From the NCBI RefSeq assembly GCF_054482525.1, contig NZ_CM137006.1: DNA of 64,000 nucleotides; one strand, 5' to 3'. How positions within the stretch are numbered: the first letter of the stretch is position 1; every line of letters starts with the position of its first letter. Both the position numbers and the translations under genes were made by a program. Of this stretch, positions 4,813-63,591 are shown piece by piece. Below the pieces are notes generated by a model. It did no database searches and was not told where the DNA came from. It was given only the letters and a program-made list of their open reading frames with translations.

Positions 4813-4814
4813 GC

Positions 4815-5780: not shown

Positions 5781-5782
5781 TG

Positions 5783-7482: not shown

Positions 7483-7484
7483 TT

Positions 7485-8921: not shown

Positions 8922-9022
8922 CAGTTGAATAATCAACCGGATTAATTCTCCGGTAAATAACGACAAAAACAAAATTGGCCGTTTCGGTCAGGGCCAACTA
9001 TTGCCTGAAAAAGGGTAACGAC

Positions 9023-19838: not shown

Positions 19839-19877
19839 CAGTACGCTGGTAGCTGTTGAGCCAGGGGCGGTAGCGTG
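19839..19877 (+). promoter_or_regulatory. JUMPstart element with ops site (GGCGGTAGCGTG) for RfaH-dependent antitermination
   Basis: Sequence cagtacgctggtagctgttgagccaggggcggtagcgtg read directly; 39-bp JUMPstart consensus ending in the 12-bp ops motif, ~80 bp upstream of the first O-antigen gene. Confidence 0.85.
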
Positions 19878-21193: not shown

Positions 21194-21201
21194 GGCTAAC
21201 A

Positions 21202-23159: not shown

Positions 23160-23160
23160 A

Positions 23161-24228: not shown

Positions 24229-24248
24229 GGTATTGGAGCTATTAAAGT

Positions 24249-25265: not shown

Positions 25266-25333
25266 ATTGAAACAATTATAATCATCCATTTCATTGCTTA
25301 CTGTATTGTTATCTATATATATGAAAACAAAAA

Positions 25334-26341
25334 ATGAAAATATTATATGATGGGATTGTGAAAAGTTTACAATCATATGGTGGTATCACTGTATACTTTG
25401 AAGAAATCATTAAGAGATTAAAAAATGACGAATACAAATTCATTCAATTTAATGATAAAAATGAAAATCACAATGATGATCTCCATCGGCCATGCCGGTT
25501 TTTAGAACGATATAGATGTTTTGAAGCATTAAAAAGTGATTCAGATTACAGTATATTTCATTCTACATATTATCGGGTTCCGAAAGATGGGGAATATGCG
25601 GTTGTGACCACGGTCCACGATTTCACATATGAATTGTATATGAAAGGACTTCGGCGCAATGTTCATAGCTTACAAAAAAGATGGGCTGTGAAACATAGCG
25701 ATGCAATCATTTGTGTCTCTAATAATACAGCCAAGGATTTAATTAATTTCTTTAAGGTTGATGAAAAAAAGATACATGTTATTCATAATGGTGTATCGGA
25801 AGATTATAGACACTTAAATCTAGAAAAAGAAAATTTTGTGCTTTTTGTCGGTGCTCGTTCAGGATATAAAAATTTTGAGCTTGCAGTTAAAGCCGTTTCT
25901 AAACTTTTTGATACTAATCTTAAAATAGTCGGCGGAGGTGGTTTAAATAAAGCAGAAATGAAGTTACTATCTGAATATCTTCCAGAAAGATTCCAGTACT
26001 TAGGGAAGGTATCAAATGAAAAACTAAATATATTATATAATTCGGCTTATTGCTTAATCTATCCTTCAGAATATGAAGGGTTTGGAATTCCCTTGCTTGA
26101 GGCTATGCGAACTGGCTGTCCTGTGATAGCCGTAAATAGATCATCAATACCCGAGGTTGTGGGGGATAGTGCGATTTTAGTCGAAGAAGTATCAATTGAA
26201 AGTTTATTCTCAGCTTTATTAAGTGTAGAAGCTAACGCTAATGAATTAAAAAATAAAGGATTAGCGCAATCTAATAAATTTTCATGGGGGAAGTGTTTCT
26301 CCGAAACATATAATCTATATAAATCACTATCTAAGTTTTGA
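25334..26341 (+). CDS. Glycosyltransferase family 4
   Basis: 335 aa; [21 protein letters not shown] motif (E-x7-E). Confidence 0.78.
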
Positions 26342-26351
26342 GAGGTTATTT

Positions 26352-27473
26352 ATGTGTAAGAAAGCTTTAATTACAGGAATTACCGGGCAAGATGGTTCCT
26401 ACTTGGCAGAATTTCTGCTTAAAAAAGGCTATGAGGTTCATGGAATAAAACGTCGATCTTCCTTGTTTAATACTGACCGTATTGATCATATATATCAAGA
26501 CCCACACCATCGTAATTTAAAATTACAACTTCATTATGGTGATTTAACAGATACTTCTAATTTGACTCGGATATTATCTGAAGTTCAACCTGATGAAGTT
26601 TATAATCTTGGCGCAATGAGTCACGTAGCTGTTTCCTTCGAATCCCCAGAATATACAGCTGATGTTGATGCTATAGGTACTTTACGATTATTGGAAGCTA
26701 TTCGTTTTTTGGGATTAGAAAAAAAAACCCGATTTTATCAGGCGTCAACCTCTGAATTGTATGGATTAGTTCAGGAAGTTCCACAAAAAGAGACAACGCC
26801 GTTCTATCCTCGTTCACCTTATGCCGTAGCTAAACTGTATGCATATTGGATCACTGTAAACTATCGTGAGTCTTATGGAATGTATGCATGTAACGGTATT
26901 TTGTTCAATCATGAATCCCCACGTCGTGGGGAAACGTTTGTAACACGTAAAATCACACGTGCTATAGCTAATATATCGCAGGGAATAGAAAAATGCTTAT
27001 ATCTTGGCAACATGGATTCTTTACGCGATTGGGGGCATGCGAAAGATTATGTTCGTATGCAATGGATGATGCTTCAACAAGACCAGCCAGAAGACTTTGT
27101 TATTGCCACCGGCAAACAAATATCTGTACGTGAATTTGTCCGTATGTCTGCTAAAGAAGTTGGACTTGAACTTGAGTTTTCCGGTACTGGTGTTGATGAG
27201 ATTGCATTTGTTGTAAATAAAACATCAGATTGCGCCGTTGGTGTTAATATTGGTGATGTTATTGTTCGCGTTGACCCTCGTTATTTTCGACCAGCAGAAG
27301 TTGAAACTCTTCTTGGTGATCCAACAAAAGCAAAAAATGTCTTGGGTTGGGAGCCAGAGATTACAGTTGAAGAAATGTGTGCAGAAATGGTGGCTAGTGA
27401 TTTAGAAAAAGCTAAACAGCATGCACTTCTTAAAAGCCATGGTTTTGACGTGGCAGTCTCTTTGGAGCGTTAA
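26352..27473 (+). CDS. gmd: GDP-mannose 4,6-dehydratase (O-antigen copy, low GC)
   Basis: 373 aa; protein highly similar to colanic acid Gmd (3691..4812) but with divergent, AT-richer codon usage. Confidence 0.93.
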
Positions 27474-27476
27474 AGT

Positions 27477-28442
27477 ATGACCAAGAAGCGAATTTTTGTG
27501 GCTGGACATCGTGGGATGGTTGGTTCTGCTATTTGTCGTCAATTATTAGCACGTAATGATGTTGAGTTAATTGTCAAAACTCACAAAGAACTCGATTTGA
27601 CAGTTCAAAAGGATGTTGAATGTTTTTTTGAGCAAGAGAGAATAGATCAGGTTTACCTTGCAGCAGCAAAAGTAGGAGGAATTCATGCTAATAACACTTT
27701 TCCAGCTGAATTTATTTATCAGAACCTTCTTATTGAAAGCAATATTATTCACTCATCTTACAAAGCGGGCATAAAGAAACTATTATTCTTAGGGTCAAGT
27801 TGTATCTATCCAAAGTTTGCAGAACAGCCAATGAAAGAATCTGCACTTTTGACGGGAACTCTTGAGCCTACTAATGAGCCTTATGCTATTTCCAAAATAG
27901 CAGGTATAAAGCTATGTGAATCTTATAATCGCCAATATGGATGTGATTATCGCAGTGTAATGCCTACTAACTTATATGGTATGAATGATAATTTTCATCC
28001 CAATAACTCACATGTAATTCCAGCGCTTATGCGGCGTTTTCATGAAGCAAAGGAACTTGGTTTAAATGAAGTGGTTGTCTGGGGAACGGGAACTCCAAAA
28101 CGCGAGTTTTTATATGTTGATGATATGGCCGCTGCATCAGTATATGTGATGGAGCTTGATGATGAAATTTATAAAAAAAATACTCAACCAATGTTATCTC
28201 ATATTAACGTAGGTACTGGTGTTGATTGTTCCATACGTGAAATGGCAGAAACAATGGCTTTAGTTGTTGGCTATGATGGAAAAATTGTTTTTGATATAAC
28301 AAAACCAGATGGTTCGCCTCGTAAACTTATGGATGTTACACGCCTTGAGAATTTGGGTTGGAAATATCGTTATAATTTAAAACAAGGACTAGAATTAACA
28401 TATAAATGGTTTATAAATAATCTTGACTCATTTAGGAGTTAA
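27477..28442 (+). CDS. fcl: GDP-L-fucose synthase (O-antigen copy)
   Basis: 321 aa; paralogue of 4815..5780 with the same motifs. Confidence 0.93.
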
Positions 28443-28444
28443 TA

Positions 28445-28900
28445 TTGAACAAGAGATTAGAAACAGAGTTATTTAAATCAATAGTTGAACATACTCCACT
28501 AATCTCGATAGACCTTATTATAAGAAACGAAGATGGTAAGGCGCTGCTTGGTCAGCGCCTTAATCGTCCAGCACAAAATTATTGGTTTGTGCCGGGGGGA
28601 CGGATTCTTAAAGATGAGTCTTTCGAGAACGCATTCAAAAGAGTTACTTTAGAAGAATTGGGTGTTCAAATTAGCATTAATGAAGCAAAATTTCTTGGGA
28701 TTTATGAACATTTCTACAGCGACAATTTTTCTGGGACTTGTTTTTCAACTCATTATGTCGTACACGGATATGAGATTAGTTTGATGCCACATCAAATTAA
28801 CTATCCAACACTACAACATAGTACTTACAATTGGTTCGATATAGCCGAATTGTTAGCTAATTCCTCAGTTCATCAGTACACAAAAAATTATTTTAAGTGA
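28445..28900 (+). CDS. gmm: GDP-mannose mannosyl hydrolase (O-antigen copy; apparent TTG start)
   Basis: 151 aa; aligns with colanic acid Gmm (NRPAQ.YWFVPGG); no in-frame ATG near the start, TTG at 28445 just after the fcl stop. Confidence 0.8.
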   Translation: MNKRLETELFKSIVEHTPLISIDLIIRNEDGKALLGQRLNRPAQNYWFVPGGRILKDESFENAFKRVTLEELGVQISINEAKFLGIYEHFYSDNFSGTCFSTHYVVHGYEISLMPHQINYPTLQHSTYNWFDIAELLANSSVHQYTKNYFK

Positions 28901-28911
28901 AGGTTATTTAT

Positions 28912-30297
28912 ATGCTACTTCCTGTTGTAATGGCCGGTGGTTCTGGAACTAGATTGTGGCCACTTTCTCGAACACTATATCCGAAGCAATTCCTATCGTT
29001 AACTAGTCGTTTGACTATGCTACAAGAGACCTTAAGAAGGCTTGAAGGGGTTGAACATCGTCCTGCTCTGGTTATTTGTAATGAAGTTCATCGTTTTATC
29101 GTTGCAGAACAGATGCGTAATGTAAATTTAGCGAATAGTGGCATTTTACTAGAGCCGATAGGTCGTAATACAGCCCCCGCAGTTGCGCTTGCTGCTCTTA
29201 AAGCGATTTCATCAGGTGAGGATCCAATACTGCTTGTACTAGCAGCCGATCATGAAATACAAGACCAAAAGCGCTTTATATCGTCAATATTGGCTGCAAA
29301 AGAATTTGCAGAGGAAGGTAAGCTGGTAACTTTTGGTATTGTGCCAACCAAACCCGAAACTGGATATGGCTACATAAAAACCGGAGAAAATTTAAATGAA
29401 TATGGTTTTAAAGTTTCTGCTTTTGTTGAAAAGCCTGAGCTAGATGTGGCCAAAAAATATCTTGAAGATGGAGATTATCTTTGGAATAGTGGAATATTCA
29501 TGTTTAGGGCTTCTGTGTTTATTGATGAGTTGAATAAATTTAGACCAGACATACTAAAAATATGCCAACAAGCATTGAAGTCCTCTACACAAGATCTTGA
29601 TTTTATCCGTATAGATAATGACTCATTTAGTTGTTGCCCTGAAGAATCCATTGATTACGCTGTTATGGAGAAAACAACAGAGGCTGTGGTAGTTCCATTA
29701 AATGCCCACTGGAGCGATGTTGGTTCTTGGTCTGCATTATGGGAAATTAGCAGAAAAGATAAAAGTGGAAATGCAATTAGAGGAGATGTATTAATTCATG
29801 ATTCTTCTGACAGTTATCTTTACTCACAACATAGATTAATTGGTGTAGTAGGAGTTAAAGATTTAGTAGTTGTTGAAACTAAAGATGCTATTCTCGTTGC
29901 GCATAAAGATAAAGTTCAACAGGTAAAAAATATTGTAGAAAAACTTAAAGTTAATAACCGTACGGAATATCTGCAGCATCGTGAAATATTTAGGCCATGG
30001 GGCAGTCATGACTCTATAGCGGAAGGATCTCGATTTGAGGTTAAACATGTCGTTATTCATCCTGGACATAAAACTGCTAAACAGATTCATTACCATCGTA
30101 CTGAGCATTGGATTGTTGTTTCTGGAACAGCAAAAGTCCATTATGAAGATGAAATATTTCTTGTTTCTGAAAATGAATCAACTTATATACCAATAGGTGT
30201 ACCTCATTTTATTGAGAATCCAGGAAAGATCCCTTTGGAGATTATTGAGGTACGTTCAGGTGTCTACTTGGATGAAGATGATGTTGTTAGAATCTAA
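28912..30297 (+). CDS. manC: Mannose-1-phosphate guanylyltransferase (O-antigen copy)
   Basis: ORF 28897..30297; start chosen at [16 protein letters not shown] (ATG 28912) by alignment with CpsB; low-GC paralogue. Confidence 0.9.
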   Translation: MLLPVVMAGGSGTRLWPLSRTLYPKQFLSLTSRLTMLQETLRRLEGVEHRPALVICNEVHRFIVAEQMRNVNLANSGILLEPIGRNTAPAVALAALKAISSGEDPILLVLAADHEIQDQKRFISSILAAKEFAEEGKLVTFGIVPTKPETGYGYIKTGENLNEYGFKVSAFVEKPELDVAKKYLEDGDYLWNSGIFMFRASVFIDELNKFRPDILKICQQALKSSTQDLDFIRIDNDSFSCCPEESIDYAVMEKTTEAVVVPLNAHWSDVGSWSALWEISRKDKSGNAIRGDVLIHDSSDSYLYSQHRLIGVVGVKDLVVVETKDAILVAHKDKVQQVKNIVEKLKVNNRTEYLQHREIFRPWGSHDSIAEGSRFEVKHVVIHPGHKTAKQIHYHRTEHWIVVSGTAKVHYEDEIFLVSENESTYIPIGVPHFIENPGKIPLEIIEVRSGVYLDEDDVVRI

Positions 30298-30368
30298 AAT
30301 GATGCTGGATACTAATGCAACATTATTATTCGTAATGCTGTACTGACGTTATTTAATTATGATTATTA

Positions 30369-31127
30369 TTGGATGTTAAAATGAAAGTCAGTATTATTAC
30401 AGTGACTTATAATAGTGAAAAGACTTTAAGGGATACTTTAGAGTCAATAGAGTTGCAAACCTATAAAGATATAGAGTATATAATTATTGATGGTGGTTCT
30501 ACAGATAATACGTTAAAACTAATTAACGAAGTATCAACAAGAGTAACCAAATGTCTATCAGAAAGCGATAACGGTATCTATGATGCTTTAAATAAAGGTA
30601 TAAATTTATCTACGGGAGATATTATTGGATTCGTTCATTCTGATGACCTTTTAGCAAGACCTGATATTATTGAAACTATTGTAAGCCGTTTCCATGAGAC
30701 AAAAGCGGATGTTGTATACGGTGATTTGGTTTTTTTCGAAAAAAACCAAACTGATATAATCAAACGATACTGGCGTAGTGGTCCTTTTAAACGTTCTAAG
30801 CTATCATTAGGCTGGGCACCACCGCATCCATCTTTCTATATGAGGAGGGAATTATATAAAGACGATGGATATTTTGATTTATCCTATAGGATTGCTGCAG
30901 ACTATGATCAGATGGTCAGGATTTTGAAACGTGATGATATTAAAGTTATTTATGTTCCTCAAGTATTTGTAAAGATGAGATTGGGTGGGGAAAGTACCAG
31001 AATTGATAACGCGATATCAAGTACAAAGGAAATTGTAGAAGTTATGAAAAACCATAATGTAAATTGGAAAATTGCTATCATTATCAGAAAAATCTCAAAA
31101 CTAATGCAATTGTTTGCGCATAAATAA
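30369..31127 (+). CDS. Glycosyltransferase family 2 (WcaE-like), inserted between manC and manB
   Basis: 252 aa; IIDGGSTDNT and DNGIYDALNKG motifs; start may be the internal Met at 30381. Confidence 0.8.
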   Translation: MDVKMKVSIITVTYNSEKTLRDTLESIELQTYKDIEYIIIDGGSTDNTLKLINEVSTRVTKCLSESDNGIYDALNKGINLSTGDIIGFVHSDDLLARPDIIETIVSRFHETKADVVYGDLVFFEKNQTDIIKRYWRSGPFKRSKLSLGWAPPHPSFYMRRELYKDDGYFDLSYRIAADYDQMVRILKRDDIKVIYVPQVFVKMRLGGESTRIDNAISSTKEIVEVMKNHNVNWKIAIIIRKISKLMQLFAHK

Positions 31128-31151
31128 TTTTATTATTGGTAAGGTTTTTAT

Positions 31152-32522
31152 ATGAAAAAATTAACCTGCTTTAAAGCCTATGATATTCGCGGGAAATTAG
31201 GCGAAGAACTGAATGAAGATATTGCGTGGCGCATTGGTCGCGCCTATGGCGAATTTCTCAAACCGAAAACCATTGTGTTAGGCGGTGACGTCCGCCTCAC
31301 CAGCGAAACCTTAAAACTGGCGCTGGCGAGAGGTTTACAGGATGCGGGCGTCGATGTGCTGGATATCGGCATGTCCGGCACCGAAGAGATCTATTTCGCC
31401 ACGTTCCATCTCGGCGTGGATGGCGGCATTGAAGTTACCGCCAGCCATAATCCGATGGATTATAACGGCATGAAGCTGGTTCGCGAGGGGGCTCGCCCGA
31501 TCAGCGGAGATACCGGACTGCGCGACGTCCAGCGTCTGGCTGAAGCCAACGACTTTCCTCCCGTCGATGAAACCAAACGCGGTCGCTATCAGCAAATCAA
31601 CCTGCGTGACGCTTACGTTGATCACCTGTTCGGTTATATCAATGTCAAAAACCTCACGCCGCTCAAGCTGGTGATCAACTCCGGGAACGGCGCAGCGGGT
31701 CCGGTGGTGGACGCTATCGAAGCCCGCTTTAAAGCCCTCGGCGCACCTGTGGAATTGATCAAAGTGCACAACACGCCGGACGGCAATTTCCCCAACGGTA
31801 TTCCTAACCCGCTGCTGCCGGAATGTCGCGACGACACCCGCAATGCGGTCATTAAACACGGCGCGGATATGGGCATTGCCTTTGATGGCGATTTTGACCG
31901 CTGTTTCCTGTTTGACGAAAAAGGGCAGTTTATCGAGGGCTACTACATTGTCGGCCTGCTGGCAGAAGCGTTCCTCGAAAAAAATCCCGGCGCGAAGATC
32001 ATCCACGATCCACGTCTCTCCTGGAATACCGTTGATGTGGTGACCGCCGCGGGCGGCACACCGGTGATGTCGAAAACCGGACACGCCTTTATTAAAGAAC
32101 GTATGCGCAAGGAAGACGCCATCTACGGTGGCGAAATGAGCGCCCACCACTATTTCCGTGATTTCGCTTACTGCGACAGCGGCATGATCCCGTGGCTGCT
32201 GGTCGCCGAACTGGTGTGTCTGAAAGGAAAAACGCTGGGCGAACTGGTGCGCGACCGGATGGCAGCGTTTCCGGCAAGCGGTGAGATCAACAGCAAACTG
32301 GCGCAACCCGCTGAGGCGATTAATCGCGTCGAACAGCATTTTAGCCGTGAGGCGCTGGCGGTGGATCGCACCGATGGCATCAGCATGACCTTTGCCGACT
32401 GGCGCTTTAACCTGCGCTCCTCCAACACCGAACCGGTGGTGCGCCTGAATGTGGAATCGCGCGGTGATGTGCCGCTGATGGAAGAAAAGACAAAACTTAT
32501 CCTTGCGTTATTGAACAAGTAA
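31152..32522 (+). CDS. manB: Phosphomannomutase (O-antigen copy; mosaic, near-identical to cpsG over most of its length)
   Basis: 456 aa; spot comparisons of 60-bp blocks against 9023..10393 show 0-3 mismatches each; only the last ~40-50 bp diverge. Confidence 0.93.
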
Positions 32523-36814: not shown

Positions 36815-37419
36815 TCACTGATGCCGTTTGCGCAGGTTCTCAATCACCGTCGTTAAATCCAGATCCTGATCCTGCAACAATACCAACAGGTGATACATCA
36901 AATCAGATGCCTCGTTGGTCAGCTCAAAGCGGTCATGTACCGTTGCTGCCAGCGCAGTTTCCACGCCTTCTTCGCCCACTTTCTGCGCAATGCGCTTGGT
37001 GCCGCTGGCATACAGTTTGGCGGTGTAGGAGGTTTCCGGGGCGGCAGATTTACGTTCGGCGAGCAGTTGTTCCAGTTGATAGAGGAACAGCCACTGGTGA
37101 GCGGTGTCACCGAAGCAGCTGCTGGTGCCTTTGTGGCAGGTCGGGCCGATGGGATTAGCCAGCACTAATAACGTGTCGTTGTCGCAGTCCGGGGCAATAC
37201 TCACTACGTTGAGGAAATTGCCCGACGTTTCGCCTTTGGTCCACAGTCGCTGTTTAGTGCGCGAGAAGAAGGTGACTTTGCCGCTTTCGATGGTTTTGTC
37301 TAAGGCTTCCGGGTTCATGTAGCCCAGCATTAACACTTCGCCGGATACCGCGTGTTGCACAATCACCGGCATCAGTCCGTCGGTTTTTTCCCAGTCCAGT
37401 TCGCGACGTTGTTGTTCTG

Positions 37420-37426
<7 letters not shown>
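36815..37426 (-). CDS. hisI: Bifunctional phosphoribosyl-AMP cyclohydrolase / phosphoribosyl-ATP pyrophosphatase
   Basis: 203 aa; last gene of the his operon by order. Confidence 0.95.
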
Positions 37427-39504
<2,078 letters not shown>

Positions 39505-39505
<1 letters not shown>

Positions 39506-40571
39506 TACAGCACTCCTTTCGACGAGGGCAGGGTGTCGCCTTCCACGCGGATGGCCTGGCGCAGGGTGCGACCAAAGGCTTTGAACAGGCTCTCTACACG
39601 GTGGTGATCGTTTTTACCTTTGGTTTTCAGGTGTAGCGTCACACCCATGGTGTAAGAGAGCGAACGGAAGAAGTGCTCGATCATTTCAGTGCTGAGATCG
39701 CCCACGCGCTGGTAGGTAAATTCAGCTTTATATTCCAGGTGCGGGCGACCAGAGATATCCAGTGCACAGCGGGCAAGGCATTCGTCCATCGGCAGCACAA
39801 AACCAAAGCGGCAAATACCGCGTTTGTCGCCAAGAGCAATTTTTAATGCTTCGCCCAGCGCCAGGCCGGTATCTTCGACGGTGTGGTGATCGTCGATATA
39901 GAGGTCGCCTTTAACGTTGATTTCCATCCGGAAACCGCCGTGGGTGGCGATCTGATCCAGCATGTGATCAAAGAATCCAACGCCGGTATTAATCTTGCTG
40001 CCACCTTCACGATCCAGCCACACCTGGACGTCAATTTGCGTCTCTTTGGTGTTGCGCACTACATGGGCGTAACGGTCTCGTTTAGTGAGTTGCTCGCCAA
40101 TCATTGGCCAGTTCAGGGTTTCGCGGTCGTAGCGTAAACCATTAATACCCATGTTTTCAGCCAGTTGAATATCGGTCGCGCGATCGCCAATCACATAACT
40201 GTTGGCGCGATCCATCGCTTGCTCAGCGAGATAACGCTCCACCAGTTTTACTTTCGGCTTACGGCAGTCGCACTCATCGGCGGGCAGGTGCGGACAAATC
40301 AGCACTTCATCAAACTGCACGCCTTGTGAGGTGAAGATCTGCATCATCAGGTTGTGCGGGCCATCGAAATCCGCCTGCGGGAAACTTTGTGTTCCCAGAC
40401 CATCCTGATTAGTGATCATCACCAGCTTGTAGCCCGCTTTTTGCAGCTTCAGCAGCTCCGGGATCACGCCAGGTTCAAAGGCGAGTTTGTCAAAACGGTC
40501 CACCTGAAAATCACTCGGCGGTTCGCTGATCAGGGTTCCATCGCGATCGATAAAAAGATACTTCTGACTCA

Positions 40572-40572
<1 letters not shown>
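39505..40572 (-). CDS. hisB: Bifunctional histidinol-phosphatase / imidazoleglycerol-phosphate dehydratase
   Basis: ORF 39505..40575; start at [14 protein letters not shown] (HAD motif), 355 aa. Confidence 0.95.
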
Positions 40573-42943
<2,371 letters not shown>

Positions 42944-42948
42944 GGCGA

Positions 42949-43848
42949 TCACTCCATCATCTTCTCAATCGGCAGGACCAGGATTGAACTGGCACCCAGC
43001 GCTTTCAGTTTTTCCATCGTTTCCCAGAACAGGGTTTCGCTACTGACCATGTGCATCGCTACGCGTTGTTGGTCACCCGCCAGCGGCAGAATGGTTGGGC
43101 GTTCGGCACCTGGCAGCAGGGCGATGACTTCATCCAGGCGTTCGGTCGGTGCGTGCATCATGATGTATTTTGATTCGCGCGCCTGGATAACACCCTGAAT
43201 ACGGGTCAGCAGTTTGTCGATCAGTTGCTGTTTGGATACTTCCATTTCGCCATCGCGCTGGATCAGGCAGGCTTTCGAGCGGTAGATAACTTCGACTTCG
43301 CGCAGGCCGTTAGCTTCCAGCGTGGCACCGGTGGAAACCAGATCACAAATCGCATCTGCCAGTCCGGCACGCGGGGCGACTTCGACAGAACCGTTCAGTA
43401 AGCAGGATTTAAAAGAGATGCCTTTCTGGTCGAGATAACGCTTGAGCAGGTGAGGATAAGAGGTGGCGATACGTTTACCGTTTAAGGAGAGTGGGCCATC
43501 CCAGGCTTCATCAACCGGCGTTGCCAGCGAAAGACGGCAACCGCCGAAATCCAGACGACGCAGGGTAAAGTAGCGCGGATCTTCACCCTGGGCGCGGCGG
43601 TTAAGCAGCTCTTCTTCCAGCACGTTTTCGCCGATAATCCCGAGGTCAACCACGCCGTCCATTACCAGACCGGGAATGTCGTCATCACGTACGCGCAGAA
43701 TATCAATCGGCATGTTTTCTGCCATCGCGATCAGGCGCTGGGTGTGAAGATTGATTTTAATGCCACAGCGCGCCAGCAATTCGCGTGAGTCATCACTTAA
43801 ACGGCCTGATTTCTGCATAGCTATGCGTAAACGAGTGTTGTCTGTCAT
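42949..43848 (-). CDS. hisG: ATP phosphoribosyltransferase
   Basis: ORF 42949..43887; start at [17 protein letters not shown], 299 aa. Confidence 0.95.
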
Positions 43849-43895
43849 TTTCTTATTCCTCTTTAAACCTGTCTGAACCGTTATCAACCGCGCAA

Positions 43896-43930
43896 TAAAA
43901 AAGCCCCCGGAAGATGATCTTCCGGGGGCT
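43896..43930 (-). terminator. his operon attenuator (leader terminator hairpin)
   Basis: Minus-strand reading gives gcccccggaag-loop-cttccgggggc followed by a U-run, between hisL and hisG. Confidence 0.8.
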
Positions 43931-43993
43931 TACTCATGCGTTCATGCACCACTGGAAGATCTGAATGTCTTCCAGCACACATCGCCTGAAAGA

Positions 43994-44044
43994 CTAGTCA
44001 GGATGATGGTGATGATGGTGGTGTTTAAATTGAACGCGTGTCAT
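43994..44044 (-). CDS. hisL: his operon leader peptide (MTRVQFKHHHHHHHPD)
   Basis: Reverse complement read directly: atg aca cgc gtt caa ttt aaa then 7 consecutive His codons, cct gac tag. Confidence 0.95.
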   Translation of the reverse strand: MTRVQFKHHHHHHHPD

Positions 44045-44294
44045 AAAAGTCTCTGTGAATGTTTATTCAACTGATGTCTTTTAACCTAAACCACTTTCAC
44101 GTTAGAAAGCAAGGGCTTTTTTATATATTTTATGGCGATGGATTTGTTTAATGAATGAGCGGGGAAAGGAGGGGGCTAAGAGGACTGACCTCTAAGCTGA
44201 CGGCACCAAAAATAGCGAAGCCTGGATTTTTCGACTCACTGACAATATCTTGATCTACAAACTAATTAATAAATAGTTAATTAACGCCCATCAT

Positions 44295-44312
44295 TGTACA
44301 ATGAAATGTACA
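44295..44312 (+). promoter_or_regulatory. yefM-yoeB operator: tandem TGTACA palindromes overlapping the promoter
   Basis: tgtacaatgaaatgtaca immediately upstream of the RBS gaggag and the yefM ATG. Confidence 0.65.
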
Positions 44313-44327
44313 AAAGAGGAGATTAAC

Positions 44328-44579
44328 ATGCGTACAATTAGCTACAGCGAAGCGCGTCAGAATTTGTCGGCAACAATGATGAAAGCCGTTGATGATCATG
44401 CCCCGATCCTTATTACTCGTCAGAATGGAGAGGCTTGTGTTCTGATGTCACTCGAAGAATACAACTCCCTGGAGGAGACGGCTTATCTACTGCGTTCCCC
44501 CGCTAACGCCCGGAGATTGATGGACTCAATCGATAGCCTGAAATCTGGCAAAGGAACGGAAAAGGACATCATTGAGTGA
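44328..44579 (+). CDS. yefM: Type II antitoxin YefM
   Basis: ORF 44301..44579; start at [17 protein letters not shown] gives 83 aa; 4-bp overlap with yoeB. Confidence 0.93.
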
Positions 44580-44830
44580 AACTAATCTGGTCTGAGGAAT
44601 CATGGGATGATTATCTGTACTGGCAGGAAACAGATAAGCGAATTGTTAAAAAGATCAATGAACTTATCAAAGATACCCGCAGAACGCCATTTGAAGGTAA
44701 GGGGAAGCCAGAACCCCTGAAACATAATTTGTCAGGTTTCTGGTCCCGACGCATTACAGAGGAGCACCGTCTGGTATACGCGGTTACCGACGATTCACTG
44801 CTCATTGCAGCATGTCGTTATCATTATTGA
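44576..44830 (+). CDS. yoeB: Type II toxin YoeB (ribosome-dependent mRNA interferase)
   Basis: 84 aa; RelE/YoeB fold C-terminal ...RYHY. Confidence 0.93.
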
Positions 44831-46712: not shown

Positions 46713-46798
46713 AGAAAAATTATTATGACAAGCCTCTCATTCTCTTGTCATTTCCCCCCCATTTAGGCACAATGCGCCGCTGTCAAAAAATGACTAAA

Positions 46799-46830
46799 AA
46801 CCGACGTTTAATTAGCGTCGGTTATTTTTT
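46799..46830 (+). terminator. Rho-independent terminator downstream of yeeY
   Basis: Hairpin aaccgacg...cgtcggtt followed by T6. Confidence 0.6.
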
Positions 46831-46978
46831 GCTTCAAACCAATCATTCATACCAAGAGGCCGGGCTTCGTACCGGATAGATATTTACTAAAAATCGACAG
46901 TTGTTGTCGCTGAGGAATCCAAAAAAATGGGGCAATTTTTTGCTTACGCGACGGTTATCACCGTAAAGGAGAATGACC

Positions 46979-48337
46979 ATGTCGCATAACGTTACTCCAA
47001 ACACCTCTCGCGTGGAATTGCGTAAAACGCTTACGTTAGTTCCGGTTGTAATGATGGGTCTTGCCTATATGCAGCCGATGACGCTGTTTGATACATTTGG
47101 TATCGTTTCAGGCCTCACGGATGGTCATGTGCCGACAGCCTATGCGTTCGCATTGATTGCGATCCTGTTTACGGCTCTGAGCTACGGGAAGCTGGTTCGC
47201 CGCTATCCTTCTGCTGGCTCTGCATACACTTACGCCCAGAAATCCATTAGCCCGACTGTCGGCTTTATGGTGGGTTGGTCTTCTCTGCTCGACTATCTGT
47301 TCGCGCCGATGATCAACATTCTACTGGCGAAAATCTATTTTGAAGCTCTGGTGCCTTCCATTCCATCGTGGATGTTTGTGGTGGCGCTGGTGGCCTTTAT
47401 GACCGCCTTTAACCTGCGTAGTCTGAAATCCGTAGCGAACTTCAACACTGTAATCGTCGTGTTGCAGGTAGTGCTGATCGCGGTGATTCTGGGCATGGTT
47501 GTTTATGGCGTATTTGAAGGCGAAGGCGCGGGTACGCTGGCGAGCACTCGTCCGTTCTGGTCTGGCGATGCGCATGTTATCCCGATGATTACCGGGGCGA
47601 CAATCCTGTGCTTCTCCTTTACCGGCTTTGACGGCATCAGCAACCTGTCGGAAGAAACCAAAGATGCAGAGCGCGTGATCCCGCGTGCGATTTTCCTGAC
47701 CGCGCTGATCGGCGGCATGATCTTCATCTTTGCAACTTACTTCCTGCAGCTGTACTTCCCGGATATCTCTCGCTTTAAAGATCCGGATGCGTCACAGCCT
47801 GAAATCATGCTGTATGTTGCGGGTAAAGCGTTCCAGGTTGGCGCGCTGATCTTCTCCACCATTACCGTACTGGCGTCCGGTATGGCGGCGCACGCAGGCG
47901 TAGCGCGTCTGATGTACGTAATGGGTCGTGACGGCGTATTCCCGAAAAGCTTCTTCGGTTATGTACACCCGAAATGGCGTACTCCGGCGATGAACATCAT
48001 CCTGGTTGGCGCGATTGCCTTGCTGGCAATCAACTTCGACCTGGTAATGGCTACGGCGCTGATTAACTTTGGTGCGCTGGTGGCGTTCACCTTTGTTAAC
48101 CTGTCGGTTATCTCGCAGTTCTGGATCCGTGAGAAGCGTAATAAGACGCTGAAAGATCACTTCCAGTATCTGTTCCTGCCGATGTGTGGTGCGCTGACTG
48201 TAGGTGCGCTGTGGGTTAATCTGGAAGAAAGCTCAATGGTTCTGGGTCTGATCTGGGCTGCTATTGGTCTGATTTACCTGGCTTGCGTCACCAAGAGCTT
48301 CCGTAACCCGGTTCCGCAGTACGAAGACGTTGCATAA
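46979..48337 (+). CDS. plaP: Putrescine importer PlaP (APC-family amino acid/polyamine permease)
   Basis: ORF 46973..48337; start at MSHNVTPN, 452 aa; 12-TM permease. Confidence 0.9.
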
Positions 48338-53661: not shown

Positions 53662-53934
53662 TTAGCGACAGCCTTCTTCTGTATGCAGCAAGGCAAAAAG
53701 TTCTGCAACTCCATTGTTATTAACCGCACTGGTTACTAACACATTGTGCGCTCCAGCTTCCCGTAACCAACTTTTCACCAAAGATATTTGTTCCATGCTG
53801 GCTAAATCTGCTTTGGTGACTACTCCAATAACAGGGCGATTCATTGACGAGGTAAAGCCTGGCGAAAAAGGGGACCACGGTGTGTCCGCATTAAGCACCA
53901 GGGCGATAATGTCTGCTTCGCAGGCGCTGACCAA
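53662..53934 (-). pseudogene. Fragment of an EutP/PduV-family GTPase (C-terminal part only)
   Basis: 90 aa ORF with G4-like TKADL and [13 protein letters not shown] segments but no P-loop; flanked by short ORFs without recognisable domains. Confidence 0.45.
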
Positions 53935-54429
53935 CAGAGCACTGTAGAGGCTGCGGTTTTATCTGTGAGGACTGGCAGCAAGATTTCCAGCCTCTTGACG
54001 GTGGGCCTGTGCAATCGTTATCAGATGCGTATAGCGATTATTCAGTGCTGCTATTGATAGCAGCTGAAAGCGAGATATCCGTACCAGAATGGCTCCCTCA
54101 TTCTGAGGGAACGACGGTAATTGTGATTGCAGAACACAATGCCCGTTTGCTGACTGGTCCGGCTGGTGGGGCTGTGGCATTGATCCATTATCTGAATGAA
54201 ATCTGTCATTCCAGAGAAACCGCTGTCAATGACGCATTTTGTCGGACGTTAACACGAGGAAGTCTGGCTATTCCGCAATGCCATCTTCTTTCGTAATGGA
54301 TTGAGAATGCTGGATTTTTAATTATATTACGCGCAGTATTAATCGCGTAAATGTTTTGCGGTCAGCAACGGTGGGGGATCCATTGTTCTGTTCAATGAAT
54401 ACCATCATACAATTGAATCAGGAGTCGGT

Positions 54430-57858: not shown

Positions 57859-57934
57859 TGGCTCCTCTGACTGGACTCGAACCAGTGACATACGGATTAA
57901 CAGTCCGCCGTTCTACCGACTGAACTACAGAGGA
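57859..57934 (-). tRNA. asnV: tRNA-Asn (GUU)
   Basis: 76-nt sequence whose reverse complement is TCCTCTGTAGTTCAGTCGGTAGAACGGCGGACTGTTAATCCGTATGTCACTGGTTCGAGTCCAGTCAGAGGAGCCA; cloverleaf with GTT anticodon and CCA end. Confidence 0.95.
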
Positions 57935-58055
57935 ATCGTGTGAACGGGGCGCATATTAATGGCAGTGCATGGTGATGTCAAAGGGTGAAATGCATTTTTT
58001 TGTTTGTTTGCTGTCAATTTCAACAAAGTGGTGAGCTTTCAATCTTATTGGGTAA

Positions 58056-58072
58056 TGAACCATCGTGGTGCA
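58056..58072 (+). promoter_or_regulatory. Putative NtrC enhancer site upstream of nac
   Basis: tgaaccatcgtggtgca resembles the TGCACC-N5-GGTGCA NtrC consensus, ~120 bp upstream of the sigma-54 promoter. Confidence 0.45.
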
Positions 58073-58189
58073 TACCCTCCTTTTATAGGGCAGGGGAACG
58101 CGACAGCTGATAAAAAGAGCCAATGACGAATCTATCATAATCTCTTATTTGACAGTTGGTTAGCTTGTACATCAACGCCAAAATAAAAC

Positions 58190-58205
58190 TGGCAAGCATC
58201 TTGCA
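58190..58205 (+). promoter_or_regulatory. Sigma-54 (-24/-12) promoter of nac
   Basis: TGGCAAGCATCTTGCA matches the TGGCAC-N5-TTGCA consensus; ~55 bp upstream of the nac ATG. Confidence 0.85.
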
Positions 58206-58260
58206 ATCTGGTTGTAAGTAATGGCGGCACTTGGGCCGATTCTTATAAACCGGAGGCAAC

Positions 58261-59178
58261 ATGAACTTCAGACGCCTGAAATACTTCGTAAAAATTGTAG
58301 ATATTGGTAGCCTGACCCAGGCTGCTGAAGTATTGCATATCGCACAACCAGCGCTCAGTCAGCAGGTTGCCACACTGGAAGGTGAGTTAAATCAACAACT
58401 TTTGATTCGCACAAAACGGGGCGTTACGCCAACTGACGCCGGAAAAATTCTCTATACCCATGCGCGGGCCATTTTACGTCAGTGTGAGCAGGCCCAACTG
58501 GCGGTGCATAACGTTGGTCAGGCATTATCGGGGCAAGTCTCGATTGGCTTTGCACCAGGAACCGCTGCGTCATCCATCACCATGCCCTTATTACAGGCGG
58601 TTCGCGCTGAATTTCCGGAGGTCGTTATCTATCTTCATGAAAATAGCGGTGCAGTGCTTAACGAAAAACTGATAAATCACCAACTCGATATGGCGGTGAT
58701 TTATGAGCATTCCCCTGTGGCTGGTGTATCCAGTCAGGCTTTACTGAAAGAAGATCTTTTTCTGGTAGGAACTCAAGATTGCCCGGGGCAAAGCGTTGAT
58801 GTTAATGCTATCGCGCAAATGAACCTCTTTCTCCCCAGTGATTACAGTGCTGTTAGACTTCGTGTTGATGAGGCTTTTTCCCTACGGCGACTCACGGCAA
58901 AAGTCATTGGTGAAATTGAGTCTATTGCCACGCTTACCGCAGCGATTGCCAGCGGCATGGGCGTTGCAGTATTACCCGAATCGGCCGCGCGTTCGTTATG
59001 TGGCGCAGTAAACGGATGGATGTCACGCATTACCACACCTTCCATGAGTCTCTCTTTGTCATTAAATTTACCCGCCAGAGCGAACTTATCACCACAGGCG
59101 CAAGCAGTGAAAGAGTTGTTAATGTCAGTGATGAGTTCTCCAGTGATGGAAAAAAGGCAGTGGCAATTGGTGAGCTAA
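58261..59178 (+). CDS. nac: Nitrogen assimilation control protein Nac (LysR family)
   Basis: 305 aa; LysR wHTH; sigma-54 promoter upstream; synteny with cbl. Confidence 0.92.
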   Translation: MNFRRLKYFVKIVDIGSLTQAAEVLHIAQPALSQQVATLEGELNQQLLIRTKRGVTPTDAGKILYTHARAILRQCEQAQLAVHNVGQALSGQVSIGFAPGTAASSITMPLLQAVRAEFPEVVIYLHENSGAVLNEKLINHQLDMAVIYEHSPVAGVSSQALLKEDLFLVGTQDCPGQSVDVNAIAQMNLFLPSDYSAVRLRVDEAFSLRRLTAKVIGEIESIATLTAAIASGMGVAVLPESAARSLCGAVNGWMSRITTPSMSLSLSLNLPARANLSPQAQAVKELLMSVMSSPVMEKRQWQLVS

Positions 59179-59279
59179 GCATTATATCGGGATGGAATAA
59201 GATGCGGGTTTTTATTATTTGTTATGCCGGGCATTAGACTTTAACAATAACGGGAAATCTGAACTGCCCGGAGTTTACC

Positions 59280-60230
59280 GTGAATTTCCAACAACTAAAG
59301 ATAATCCGCGAGGCTGCACGTCAGGATTACAACCTGACAGAGGTTGCGAATATGCTTTTTACCTCACAGTCCGGCGTCAGCCGTCATATTCGGGAACTGG
59401 AGGATGAACTTGGCATCGAAATATTTGTTCGACGAGGTAAGCGACTGCTGGGCATGACTGAACCGGGCAAAGCATTACTGGTCATTGCAGAACGTATTCT
59501 GAATGAAGCCAGTAATGTTCGTCGGCTTGCAGACCTGTTTACCAACGATACGTCTGGCGTTCTCACTATTGCAACGACGCATACTCAGGCACGTTATAGC
59601 TTGCCTGAGGTCATTAAAGCTTTTCGCGAACTTTTCCCGGAGGTTCGGCTGGAGCTAATCCAGGGTACACCACAGGAAATTGCGACGTTGTTGCAAAATG
59701 GCGAAGCTGATATTGGTATCGCCAGCGAGCGTTTAAGTAATGACCCGCAGCTCGTCGCCTTCCCGTGGTTTCGTTGGCACCATAGTTTGCTTGTTCCACT
59801 CGATCATCCCTTGACGCAAATTACACCGTTGACGCTGGAATCAATAGCGAAGTGGCCGTTAATTACTTACCGACAGGGAATTACGGGGCGCTCACGTATT
59901 GATGACGCATTTGTCCGCAAAGGTTTGCTGGCAGATATTGTATTAAGTGCGCAGGATTCTGATGTCATTAAAACCTATGTTGCTCTTGGGCTGGGGATTG
60001 GATTAGTTGCCGAACAATCCAGCGGCGAACAAGAGGAAGAGAATTTAATCCGTCTGGATACGCGGCATCTTTTCGATGCCAATACTGTATGGTTGGGACT
60101 GAAGCGAGGGCAACTTCAACGTAACTATGTCTGGCGCTTTCTGGAACTTTGTAATGCAGGACTGTCAGTTGAGGATATCAAGCGCCAGGTGATGGAGAAC
60201 AGTGAAGAGGAAATTGATTATCAGATATAG
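59280..60230 (+). CDS. cbl: CysB-like transcriptional activator Cbl (LysR family)
   Basis: 316 aa; LysR family; immediately downstream of nac. Confidence 0.92.
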   Translation: MNFQQLKIIREAARQDYNLTEVANMLFTSQSGVSRHIRELEDELGIEIFVRRGKRLLGMTEPGKALLVIAERILNEASNVRRLADLFTNDTSGVLTIATTHTQARYSLPEVIKAFRELFPEVRLELIQGTPQEIATLLQNGEADIGIASERLSNDPQLVAFPWFRWHHSLLVPLDHPLTQITPLTLESIAKWPLITYRQGITGRSRIDDAFVRKGLLADIVLSAQDSDVIKTYVALGLGIGLVAEQSSGEQEEENLIRLDTRHLFDANTVWLGLKRGQLQRNYVWRFLELCNAGLSVEDIKRQVMENSEEEIDYQI

Positions 60231-60267
60231 CAAAAAGCCCGCTATAAAAGCGGGCTTTTCAGAAATT

Positions 60268-60343
60268 TGGCTCCTCTGACTGGACTCGAACCAGTGACAT
60301 ACGGATTAACAGTCCGCCGTTCTACCGACTGAACTACAGAGGA
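60268..60343 (-). tRNA. asnU: tRNA-Asn (GUU)
   Basis: Identical 76-nt sequence to 57859..57934. Confidence 0.95.
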
Positions 60344-60503
60344 ATCGCTGTTGAGGCACATCTTAACGGCGAAAAATCTTTTGTCAAACCCGATTTTTAA
60401 ATTTCCCAACTGTTTGCCGTTTCTATCAACAGTTTGTTGCATTTGCAGACAATTTGTTGGCGAAAATCTTTGCAGCTTTGCTGATTCTCCCTCATTATTT
60501 GAA

Positions 60504-61991
60504 ATGTGGTTTCACTTTCTGCAATTAAGGTCGGCTTTGAATATCTCCTCTGCTTTACGCCAGGTTGTTCACGGCACTCGCTGGCACGCTAAACGCAAGA
60601 GCTACAAAGTGTTGTTCTGGCGCGAGATAACCCCGCTTGCTGTTCCTATCTTCATGGAGAATGCCTGTGTCCTGTTGATGGGGGTTCTGAGCACTTTTCT
60701 GGTCAGCTGGCTGGGAAAAGATGCGATGGCCGGCGTGGGATTGGCGGACAGCTTCAATATGGTCATTATGGCTTTTTTTGCAGCTATCGATCTTGGTACT
60801 ACTGTCGTTGTGGCATTTAGTCTCGGTAAGCGGGATCGACGACGAGCGAGGGTGGCGACGCGGCAGTCATTGGTGATCATGACGTTGTTTGCCGTACTGT
60901 TGGCAACGCTTATTCATCATTTTGGCGAACAAATTATTGATTTCGTCGCGGGTGATGCCACGACAGAAGTTAAAGCACTGGCGTTGACTTATCTGGAGCT
61001 GACGGTACTCAGTTATCCAGCAGCTGCCATCACTTTGATTGGTAGCGGGGCACTTCGTGGTGCAGGGAATACGAAAATACCGCTACTGATTAACGGTAGC
61101 CTGAATATTCTTAATATTATTATTAGCGGCATATTGATTTACGGCCTTTTCTCCTGGCCGGGACTGGGATTTGTCGGGGCTGGGTTGGGGTTAACCATTT
61201 CTCGTTATATTGGCGCAGTGGCAATTTTGTGGGTGCTGGCGATTGGTTTTAATCCTGCGCTAAGGATTTCGTTAAAGAGCTATTTTAAACCGCTGAATTT
61301 TAGCATTATCTGGGAAGTCATGGGGATTGGTATTCCAGCGAGTGTCGAATCAGTATTATTTACCAGTGGTCGGTTATTAACCCAAATGTTCGTTGCCGGG
61401 ATGGGGACCAGTGTTATTGCCGGGAATTTTATCGCGTTTTCAATTGCGGCTCTTATCAACTTACCCGGAAGTGCGCTCGGCTCTGCTTCTACGATCATTA
61501 CAGGCCGAAGGTTGGGGGTAGGGCAGATAGCGCAAGCAGAGATTCAGTTGCGGCATGTGTTCTGGCTGTCCACTCTTGGATTAACGGCCATCGCCTGGCT
61601 AACGGCTCCCTTTGCCGGGGTTATGGCATCGTTTTACACCCAGGATCCACAGGTTAAACATGTCGTTGTAATTCTGATTTGGCTAAATGCTTTATTTATG
61701 CCTATTTGGTCTGCCTCATGGGTGCTACCCGCTGGATTTAAGGGTGCTCGCGATGCCCGTTACGCCATGTGGGTTTCTATGTTGAGCATGTGGGGTTGCC
61801 GGGTTGTAGTCGGTTATGTGCTGGGAATCATGCTTGGTTGGGGTGTGGTTGGTGTCTGGTTGGGAATGTTTGCCGACTGGGCTGTGCGGGCCGTGCTGTT
61901 TTACTGGCGAATGGTTACTGGACGTTGGCTATGGAAATACCCTCGACCCGAGCCGCAAAAGTGTGAAAAAAAGCCAGTTGTGTCGGAATAA
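60504..61991 (+). CDS. yeeO: MATE-family efflux transporter YeeO
   Basis: ORF 60351..61991; start taken at MWFHFLQLRS (495 aa) because the longer ORF begins 8 bp after the tRNA; 12-TM MATE topology. Confidence 0.88.
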   Translation: MWFHFLQLRSALNISSALRQVVHGTRWHAKRKSYKVLFWREITPLAVPIFMENACVLLMGVLSTFLVSWLGKDAMAGVGLADSFNMVIMAFFAAIDLGTTVVVAFSLGKRDRRRARVATRQSLVIMTLFAVLLATLIHHFGEQIIDFVAGDATTEVKALALTYLELTVLSYPAAAITLIGSGALRGAGNTKIPLLINGSLNILNIIISGILIYGLFSWPGLGFVGAGLGLTISRYIGAVAILWVLAIGFNPALRISLKSYFKPLNFSIIWEVMGIGIPASVESVLFTSGRLLTQMFVAGMGTSVIAGNFIAFSIAALINLPGSALGSASTIITGRRLGVGQIAQAEIQLRHVFWLSTLGLTAIAWLTAPFAGVMASFYTQDPQVKHVVVILIWLNALFMPIWSASWVLPAGFKGARDARYAMWVSMLSMWGCRVVVGYVLGIMLGWGVVGVWLGMFADWAVRAVLFYWRMVTGRWLWKYPRPEPQKCEKKPVVSE

Positions 61992-62044
61992 ACGACAAAA
62001 TGCAGATTATTTCAGCAAACGATTTCAAATTTAAAAAACAGGCT

Positions 62045-62073
62045 TTGACATTGTGGATGGGCATCGCTAATAT
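62045..62073 (+). promoter_or_regulatory. Sigma-70 promoter of asnW (TTGACA-17 bp-TAATAT, GC-rich discriminator)
   Basis: ctttgacattgtggatgggcatcgctaatattcgcctcg read directly ~20 bp upstream of the tRNA. Confidence 0.7.
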
Positions 62074-62091
62074 TCGCCTCGTTCTCACGAT

Positions 62092-62167
62092 TCCTCTGTA
62101 GTTCAGTCGGTAGAACGGCGGACTGTTAATCCGTATGTCACTGGTTCGAGTCCAGTCAGAGGAGCCA
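62092..62167 (+). tRNA. asnW: tRNA-Asn (GUU)
   Basis: Third identical copy, opposite orientation to the other two. Confidence 0.95.
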
Positions 62168-62328
62168 AATTCAAGTTTTCATGCTTATCTGTACGTCTCT
62201 ATTTGTTTACGATTCAGTAAGTTAGCGTGAAAATCCTTCCCAGTGCGTATCTGGTTTTCTCTCTGCATCGGGATAATTTGGTGGTCAGATCTGGGGTCAG
62301 TTTGGTTCGATTCTGGAGTGACCCCCAA

Positions 62329-63591
62329 ATGTCTTTAAACGATTCTAAAATCCGCAAGTTAAAACCCTCTTCCCGTCCGGTAAAACTCTCCGACTCTCAC
62401 GGTCTGTATCTGCTCGTCAATCCGGGCGGTTCACGCATCTGGTATCTCAAATATCGTTTCAACGGAAAAGAATCCAGAGTCAGTCTTGGCGCATACCCGC
62501 TTGTCTCACTGGCAGAAGCCAGGCAACAGCGCGACGGTATCCGTAAGTTACTGGCGCAGAATATCAACCCGGCGCAGCAGCGCATGGCGGAGGAAGCGGC
62601 CTGCTCCCCTGAAAAGTGCTTTAAGGCAGTGGCGCTGGCCTGGCACAAAACCAACAAAAAATGGTCGGCTGATTATGCCGCCCGTATTCTCGCCAGTATG
62701 GAAAACCATATCTTCCCGGCGATTGGTCATCTGCCCGTTGCCACTCTTAAAACGCAGGATTTCACTGCTTTGTTGCGGGTTATCGAGGATAAAGGCTTTC
62801 TGGAAGTCGCGTCCCGAACCCGGCAGCAACTCAGCAACATCATGCGCTATGCCGTTCAGCAGGGGCTTACCGAAAGCAATCCGGCGCAGCATCTGGATGG
62901 CGTTGTCGCCTCACCCGTAAAGAACCACTACCCCGCGTTACTGCTGGAGCGGTTGCCCGAACTGCTTGGCCGCATCGGTGACTATCAGCAGGGCCGGGAG
63001 TTAACACGGCTGGCGGTGGTGCTGACGTTGCACCTGTTTATCCGTTCCAGCGAACTGCGTTTCGCCCGCTGGAGCGAGATCGATTTCAGGCACAAAATCT
63101 GGACCATCCCCGCCACCCGCGAGGCAATCGACAAAGTACGGTTTTCGGGGCGTGGCGCAAAAATACGTACCCCGCATATCGTGCCGCTCTCCCGCCAGGC
63201 GATTGCCATTCTGAAACAGATACAGGAGCTTTCCGGCCATCTGGATCTGGTGTTTCCCGGTGATCATAACTCGTACAAGCCAATGAGTGAAAACACCACC
63301 AACCGGGCGCTACGCCTGATGGGGTATGATACGAAAACTGAAATCTGCGGGCATGGACTCAGGGCGATGGCCTGTAGCGCCCTGGTGGAATCGGAGCTGT
63401 GGTCACGCGATACGGTGGAGCGGCAAATGAGCCACCAGGAGCGTAACAGCGTGCGGGCAGCCTATGTGCATAAAGCGGAGCATCTGGAGGCCAGAAAGGC
63501 CATGATGCAGTGGTGGTCGGATTATCTGGATGTGTGCCGCGAGGGGTATGTTGCGCCGTACATTTATGCCCGGCAGCATAAGGCAGCCTGA
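62329..63591 (+). CDS. P4-type tyrosine integrase (phage integrase family) adjacent to tRNA-Asn
   Basis: ORF 62227..63591; start at MSLNDSKIRKLKP (420 aa); N-terminal P4-integrase-like domain; C-terminal catalytic region with R...HxxR...Y context (HGLRAMACS..., RAAYVH). Confidence 0.9.
   Translation: MSLNDSKIRKLKPSSRPVKLSDSHGLYLLVNPGGSRIWYLKYRFNGKESRVSLGAYPLVSLAEARQQRDGIRKLLAQNINPAQQRMAEEAACSPEKCFKAVALAWHKTNKKWSADYAARILASMENHIFPAIGHLPVATLKTQDFTALLRVIEDKGFLEVASRTRQQLSNIMRYAVQQGLTESNPAQHLDGVVASPVKNHYPALLLERLPELLGRIGDYQQGRELTRLAVVLTLHLFIRSSELRFARWSEIDFRHKIWTIPATREAIDKVRFSGRGAKIRTPHIVPLSRQAIAILKQIQELSGHLDLVFPGDHNSYKPMSENTTNRALRLMGYDTKTEICGHGLRAMACSALVESELWSRDTVERQMSHQERNSVRAAYVHKAEHLEARKAMMQWWSDYLDVCREGYVAPYIYARQHKAA

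Follow-up and report, generated by a model that had tools for sequence, protein, structure and literature searches.

We have identified a 64,000-nt stretch of contig NZ_CM137006.1 (RefSeq assembly GCF_054482525.1; hereafter, the window) as carrying the his operon leader of Escherichia coli, i.e. the leader peptide gene hisL with its ribosome-mediated transcription attenuator; we put the probability of this identification at about 97%. The whole element lies on the minus strand and is read 5′ to 3′ on that strand. It comprises the leader ORF with its His codons, five helices in mutually exclusive combinations, an intrinsic terminator and the sequence of a transcriptional pause site; the his operon follows downstream, and the leader is nearly identical to that of E. 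coli K-12. This is an ordinary, intact textbook element that is already known, and it makes no new finding. The first-pass annotation of this DNA had offered the leader as an internal control for strand and coordinate accuracy. The coordinates proved accurate to the base; no strand had been given, and the element turned out to be on the minus strand.

The hisL ORF occupies 44044..43994 (minus strand; start ATG at 44044-44042), and its 16 codons translate to MTRVQFKHHHHHHHPD, followed by a UAG stop; the ORF is named hisL in the annotations of E. coli PCN033 and K-12. A 16-aa HisL peptide with seven histidines, as claimed from the letters, was thus found. The seven His codons are consecutive and form the regulatory run, codons 8-14 (44023..44003, minus strand): CAC CAC CAU CAU CAC CAU CAU. 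The 64-kb window has a single run of seven CAY codons, and no such run arose in 100 dinucleotide-preserving shuffles. The Rfam family His_leader (RF00514) matches 43895..44018 (minus strand) with a score of 130.4 bits, above the gathering score of 49 bits, and E = 3e-22; the match spans model positions 1-126 of 126, is not truncated, and its alignment flags no non-canonical pair. The minimum free energy (MFE) of the 186-nt leader is −67.3 kcal/mol, compared with −41.6 ± 4.2 kcal/mol for shuffled sequences (z = −6.1; none of 200 shuffles folds as well). Short ORFs are common, as are hairpins, and one could suppose that a chance ORF happens to stand beside an ordinary terminator with no regulatory coupling between the two; nothing beyond this commonness speaks for such a coincidence. 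It is opposed by the absence of the CAY run from the shuffles, by the E-value of the Rfam match, by the conservation of the alternative pairings in 52 leaders (see below) and by the invariable location of the leader upstream of hisG, and we regard it as excluded.

The first regulated gene, hisG (ATP phosphoribosyltransferase; 42949..43848, minus strand), was recognised by the models TIGR00070 (193 bits) and TIGR03455 (112 bits) and is annotated in PCN033. The remaining ORFs of the operon extend over 36815..42952 (minus strand), each scoring above the curated cut-off of the matching NCBIfam his model and each in agreement with the PCN033 annotation. All eight genes, hisG, D, C, B, H, A, F and IE, are therefore intact, directly downstream of the leader and on the same strand, and all exceed the NCBIfam cut-offs. 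Synteny with PCN033 and K-12 likewise places the attenuator directly upstream of the histidine biosynthesis genes, and in every genome inspected the leader is found directly upstream of hisG. On its other side stands yefM, an arrangement shared with E. coli K-12 and Salmonella. The yefM-yoeB toxin-antitoxin pair (44328-44579 and 44576-44830, plus strand) is divergent from hisL across a 283-bp intergenic region. Just upstream of yefM there are two TGTACA hexamers (44295-44300 and 44307-44312), 12 bp apart, which we take to resemble the operator palindromes of YefM-YoeB.

Over its 64 kb, the window differs by 8 substitutions and no indels from the reverse complement of positions 2177377-2241376 of E. 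coli PCN033. The 496 nt from yefM to hisG are 100% identical to PCN033, where the RefSeq annotation of these very bases names yefM, hisL, a "His leader region" and hisG. Compared with K-12 MG1655, the leader from 44075 to 43890 matches at 184 of 186 nt. The PCN033 annotation and the K-12 match, taken with the Rfam score and the hisGDCBHAFI genes downstream, support the first-pass reading of this region as a his leader with attenuator.

The window and the K-12/Salmonella enterica leader have in common the HisL peptide, the pattern of His codons, segments A-D, both arms of the terminator stem, and the pause hairpin and pause site; it was on the K-12 and Salmonella leaders that the experimental work was done (PMC4046918, PMC9291695, PMC5842316). 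Both differences from K-12 are in or beside the terminator. At 43932, immediately 5′ of the terminator stem, K-12 has A and the window U, so that the window lacks one outer A-U pair; at 43914, a position of the terminator loop, K-12 has C and the window U, which gives the window a 3-nt loop and one extra apical A-U pair; the U at 43914 agrees with the RF00514 consensus. The core hairpin of the terminator is −26.7 kcal/mol in the window and −26.0 kcal/mol in K-12, while D:E is unchanged. Judged by sequence, the two substitutions appear neutral, and we have no reason to expect a functional difference.

Among 5426 complete E. coli genomes the leader was matched in 5423, and three had no match. 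The allele of the window is in the minority: 127 of the 5423 genomes are at least 99% identical to it over the 186 nt. In 51 complete E. coli genomes the leader is 90-95% identical to that of the window. One member of this group that we inspected, LZYWN_4 (NZ_CP046416.1, 1890097-1890384), has a hisL of the MNRVQFKHHHHHHHPD type (MNRVQF type), an N-terminus also seen in several other species of the comparative set described below; every substitution in its leader falls in a loop or a spacer and none in a paired segment. The start of hisG diverges in LZYWN_4 as well, which suggests that its his/O-antigen region may be imported. In the complete E. coli genomes we also noted one copy of the his leader on a plasmid, and at least one genome with two copies.

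The pairing segments of the classical six-segment model are all present on the minus strand. Segment A, CACCAUCAUCCUGA (43998..44011), pairs with segment B, GUCUUUCAGGCGAUGUGUG (43976..43994), through 12 pairs that are 100% paired in 52 leaders; B can pair with A or with segment C, CUGGAAGAC (43967..43975), C with B or with segment D, GAUCUUCCAG (43952..43961), and D with C or with segment E, AAGCCCCCGGAAGA (43918..43931). Segment E forms the terminator stem with segment F, UCUUCCGGGGGCUU (43901..43914), E being its 5′ arm and F its 3′ arm; in the antiterminator, E is paired with D instead. Every helix of the model was recovered (5 of 5), A:B, C:D and E:F for termination and B:C and D:E for antitermination, with isolated energies of −11.8 (A:B), −11.9 (C:D), −29.7 (E:F), −10.6 (B:C) and −16.7 (D:E) kcal/mol. 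By computation, D:E takes up the 5′ terminator arm, and B:C is in competition with both A:B and C:D.

A terminator scan reports a 14-bp stem with nine G-C pairs and a 3-nt loop at 43931..43901 (minus strand), followed by TTTTATTGCG. The U tract of this intrinsic terminator, defined from the sequence and the scan, is UUUUUUAUU (43894..43902, minus strand); it contains a run of six Ts at 43902..43897, directly after which base 43896, the end coordinate given in the first-pass annotation, is an A. The start codon of hisG is at 43848 (minus strand), 47 nt beyond the terminator. Thus an intrinsic terminator, a 14-bp stem with U6, separates hisL from hisG on the same strand, which is the GC-rich hairpin and U-run ahead of hisG that had been described.

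The apical part of A:B is the his pause hairpin (43985..44002, minus strand), with arms CCUGA and UCAGG enclosing an 8-nt loop. The pause site, GAUGUGUGCU followed by G (43973..43974, minus strand), places the 3′-terminal U of the paused RNA (−1) at 43974, the following G (+1) at 43973 and G(−10) at 43983, and the hairpin followed by GCGAUGUGUGCU and G is the well-studied his pause sequence. This pause is characterised by a hairpin at −30 to −11, a G−10 Y−1 G+1 consensus and enhancement by NusA; in the cryo-EM work the template of the hisPEC scaffold contains the complement of the pause sequence, CCAGCACACATC, the pause RNA ends at U29 and escape requires GTP (PMC9291695, PMC5842316). Having the same sequence as the characterised his pause, a hairpin-dependent pause element that would synchronise transcription with translation appears to be present here.

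Folding of the alternative antiterminator and terminator structures, which had been proposed as a check on the first-pass reading, came out as the classical model predicts. The ribosome was mimicked by masking a footprint of 29 nt centred on the A site. At equilibrium the full-length leader always folds into the terminator, wherever the mask is put; E:F is too stable for masked folding of the full-length leader to show antitermination, and nascent transcripts ending before F were therefore folded. A terminator-only result for the complete leader, whatever is masked, is expected of a kinetic switch. With the A site on His codons 9-13, the MFE structure of the nascent RNA ending before F is B:C plus D:E, in which the 5′ arm of the terminator is sequestered. 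For the same RNA with no ribosome, A:B and C:D form and E is left unpaired, free for F.

A ribosome placed on the stop codon covers B, and C:D forms once D has been made; at a later stage, still before F, the equilibrium prefers D:E by ∼6 kcal/mol. It follows from this preference that termination with excess histidine depends on the order and the kinetics of folding. Barriers along direct paths were estimated at 8.7 kcal/mol for C:D to D:E, 11.7 kcal/mol for B:C to C:D and 14.9 kcal/mol for D:E to E:F; modelled barriers of 8.7-14.9 kcal/mol would fit kinetic trapping. As far as the sequence and the predicted folds can tell, attenuation control therefore seems fully intact, as the first-pass annotation had it.

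For comparison across species, one genome per species was scanned for seven His codons followed by Pro-Asp codons, which gave 120 loci. From these we took 51 distinct full-length leaders, all from Enterobacteriaceae, and an alignment of 52 rows was made; since the scan required the H7-Pro-Asp codons, the set is confined to close relatives. In this alignment 98.0% of the cells are paired in the terminator conformation and 97.7% in the antiterminator conformation, compared with 37-54% in slid controls, where the partners were moved by 1-3 columns. Compensatory change is nearly absent from the 52 leaders (2 of 39 pairs and 0 of 27 pairs). Both conformations are thus backed by conservation in the form of near-invariance, and covariation is uninformative in 52 leaders so closely related. 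Variation is found in the C:D loop, the E:F loop, the spacer between D and E, and hisL codons 2-4, and the paired segments are essentially invariant. The sole polymorphic base of segment C (A/G) is paired both ways, as A-U or G-U in C:D and as U-A or U-G in B:C, which is the behaviour that a double pairing constraint predicts. In one species (L121:1196-1319, minus strand) the his leader found by the scan has a run of ten His codons, MSVQFKHHHHHHHHHHPD, in place of seven, and scores 131.2 bits against the Rfam His_leader model. Several H7-P-D matches outside Enterobacteriaceae were considered as distant his leaders and rejected: L025 (Tolumonas), L045 and L062 (Bacteroidia), L056 (Aeromonadales) and L068 (Ignatzschineria). 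None of the five has an Rfam match, and none has a terminator or a his gene downstream; by eye they look like antisense or in-frame pieces of repetitive coding sequence.

The strictness of this conservation bears on another proposal, that a product of the leader acts in trans, either the ∼180-nt RNA left by termination as a small RNA or the 16-aa HisL as a small protein, whether beside cis attenuation or in place of it. When the operon is repressed, large amounts of a stable, highly structured leader RNA of ∼180 nt are made (the fold z-score of −6.1 given above), and the leader sequence is kept more strictly than pairing alone seems to need. The near-invariance is, however, explained by the fact that each paired segment must serve two partners. 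Moreover, residues 2-4 of HisL vary freely between genera (MTRV, MNRV, MSRV, MKSV, MISV, MCV), as expected if just the His run and the reading frame matter, and nothing found in the analysis indicates a trans target. We consider a trans function very improbable, and an attenuator acting in cis remains our reading of the leader.

The start of the leader RNA was placed at 44075 (minus strand) from the numbering of Yao et al. 2023 (PMC10989985). Their leader positions are U49, G127, U128 and G129, with boxes at 46-56, 126-134 and 187-195 (PMC10989985), and 44075 was chosen as +1 since no other numbering puts these positions on the stated bases. A 180-nt leader RNA started there would finish at 43896, the end of the U-run. 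With respect to this inferred start, a putative −10 hexamer, TAGGTT, is located at 44083..44088 (minus strand; −13 to −8), and 18 nt upstream of it a putative −35 hexamer, TTGCTT, at 44107..44112 (minus strand). We take TAGGTT and TTGCTT upstream of hisL as candidate, and weak, hexamers of the his promoter. The TAGGTT hexamer is identical in K-12, and an A+T-rich tract lies upstream of the two. Each hexamer agrees with the consensus at 3 of 6 positions, and a simple scan for the sigma-70 consensus reported no promoter upstream of hisL; TTGCTT was missed by it because of its mere three matches.

The numbering of Yao et al. (mLife) comes with a proposal of theirs, that DnaA binds DnaA-box-like "rDnaA boxes" in the his leader RNA (PMC10989985) and so strengthens attenuation, a DnaA-dependent switch being added to the ribosome-mediated one. 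The four proposed boxes are unchanged in the window and identical to K-12: AUUUAAACA and UUAAACACC at 44030-44020, the third as the complement of TCATGCACC at 43942-43950, and the fourth as the complement of TTATCAACC at 43881-43889. Enrichment by RNA immunoprecipitation was reported, as was a 3- to 5-fold derepression on deletion of boxes 1/2 or of box 3 (PMC10989985). These deletions are open to another explanation, however: boxes 1/2 overlap the start of the His-codon run, so their deletion also disturbs the classical mechanism, and deletion of box 3 also altered the predicted A:B and C:D stems (PMC10989985). DnaA-RNA binding in vitro was not found by the authors (PMC10989985). Each box, moreover, has two mismatches to the consensus, and 9-mers of this quality occur at 19 per kb in the window; the 195-nt leader has seven of them against 3.7 expected, an excess that is not significant (Poisson P = 0.085; 11% of stretches of the same size reach seven). 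We regard a DnaA-dependent switch as unlikely. Equally, it seems to us quite unlikely that the two-base terminator allele measurably shifts basal his read-through relative to K-12 or that DnaA-RNA binding adds a cell-cycle input to histidine biosynthesis.

The ribosome-mediated attenuator, our preferred reading, which no result of the analysis contradicts, would operate as described for the K-12 and Salmonella leader; the literature on that leader is our source for the sequence of steps, for the pausing and for the way in which the element would respond to His-tRNA. RNA polymerase would start near 44075, transcribe hisL and halt at 43974 once the pause hairpin (44002-43985) has formed, and the pause would give a ribosome time to load and to catch up with the polymerase. 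If His-tRNA(His) is plentiful, the ribosome should cross the seven His codons to the UAG and cover both A and B; C:D would then pair and leave E for F, and E:F with the U tract would end transcription ∼47 nt before hisG. When His-tRNA(His) runs short, the ribosome would stall at codons 8-14 and cover A alone, so that B:C and D:E could form; with D:E formed, F would have no partner, no terminator would arise and the polymerase would continue into hisGDCBHAFI. With no translation whatever, A:B, C:D and E:F would form and transcription would be expected to terminate. This three-state model (termination on fast translation, read-through on stalling, termination without translation) was described and genetically tested in Salmonella (PMC4046918), and the rise of read-through with limiting His-tRNA(His), as well as the requirement for translation of the leader, was shown experimentally for the near-identical Salmonella/E. 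coli leader (PMC4046918).

The his leader follows the logic of trpL, pheL, leuL, thrL and ilvL, in which a short ORF in the leader includes codons for the amino acid under control. As in those attenuators, a pause hairpin is present, the antiterminator and terminator hairpins exclude each other, and the first structural gene is preceded by an intrinsic terminator. The his leader differs from trpL in having six segments (A-F) rather than four, and seven consecutive regulatory codons rather than two. To our knowledge, the his operon has no dedicated repressor protein, and attenuation is its main specific control.

Several other features of the window were recorded. The Rfam family STnc240, an enterobacterial sRNA, matches 46758-46832 (plus strand; 69.3 bits, cut-off 55) between yeeY and yoeI and upstream of plaP; the tiny yoeI CDS is at 46927-46989 (plus strand), and a second match to the STnc240 family is found at L121:3367-3444. 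An algC RNA motif (8969-9018, plus strand; 78.2 bits) is situated upstream of the colanic-acid gene cpsG, and a JUMPstart element (19839-19877, plus strand; 57 bits) upstream of the O-antigen gene cluster. The cluster itself (19958-32522, plus strand) is low in G+C (28-42%), its wzx/wzy genes are annotated as O11 family in the near-identical PCN033, and it has its own gmd-fcl-gmm-manC-manB genes besides the colanic-acid copies at 3691-10393. Three tRNA-Asn genes are present (57862-57934 and 60271-60343, minus strand; 62092-62164, plus strand), and a tyrosine-type integrase gene (62329-63591, plus strand) directly follows the last of them; the region 57862-63591 looks like the edge of an island integrated at tRNA-Asn. 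Between tmaR and cobU, the PCN033 counterpart of 53662-53958 is an N-terminally truncated pseudogene of the EutP/PduV family beside a hypothetical gene, and this looks like the remnant of a microcompartment locus.

The his leader found here is useful only as a control: it shows that the window is the E. coli chromosome around the his operon, given as the strand opposite to the operon. The element itself, which raises the expression of the histidine biosynthesis genes when charged histidine tRNA runs low, is among the best-characterised regulatory elements of bacteria, and the presence of an intact leader would imply that histidine biosynthesis is regulated in this strain in the usual way.
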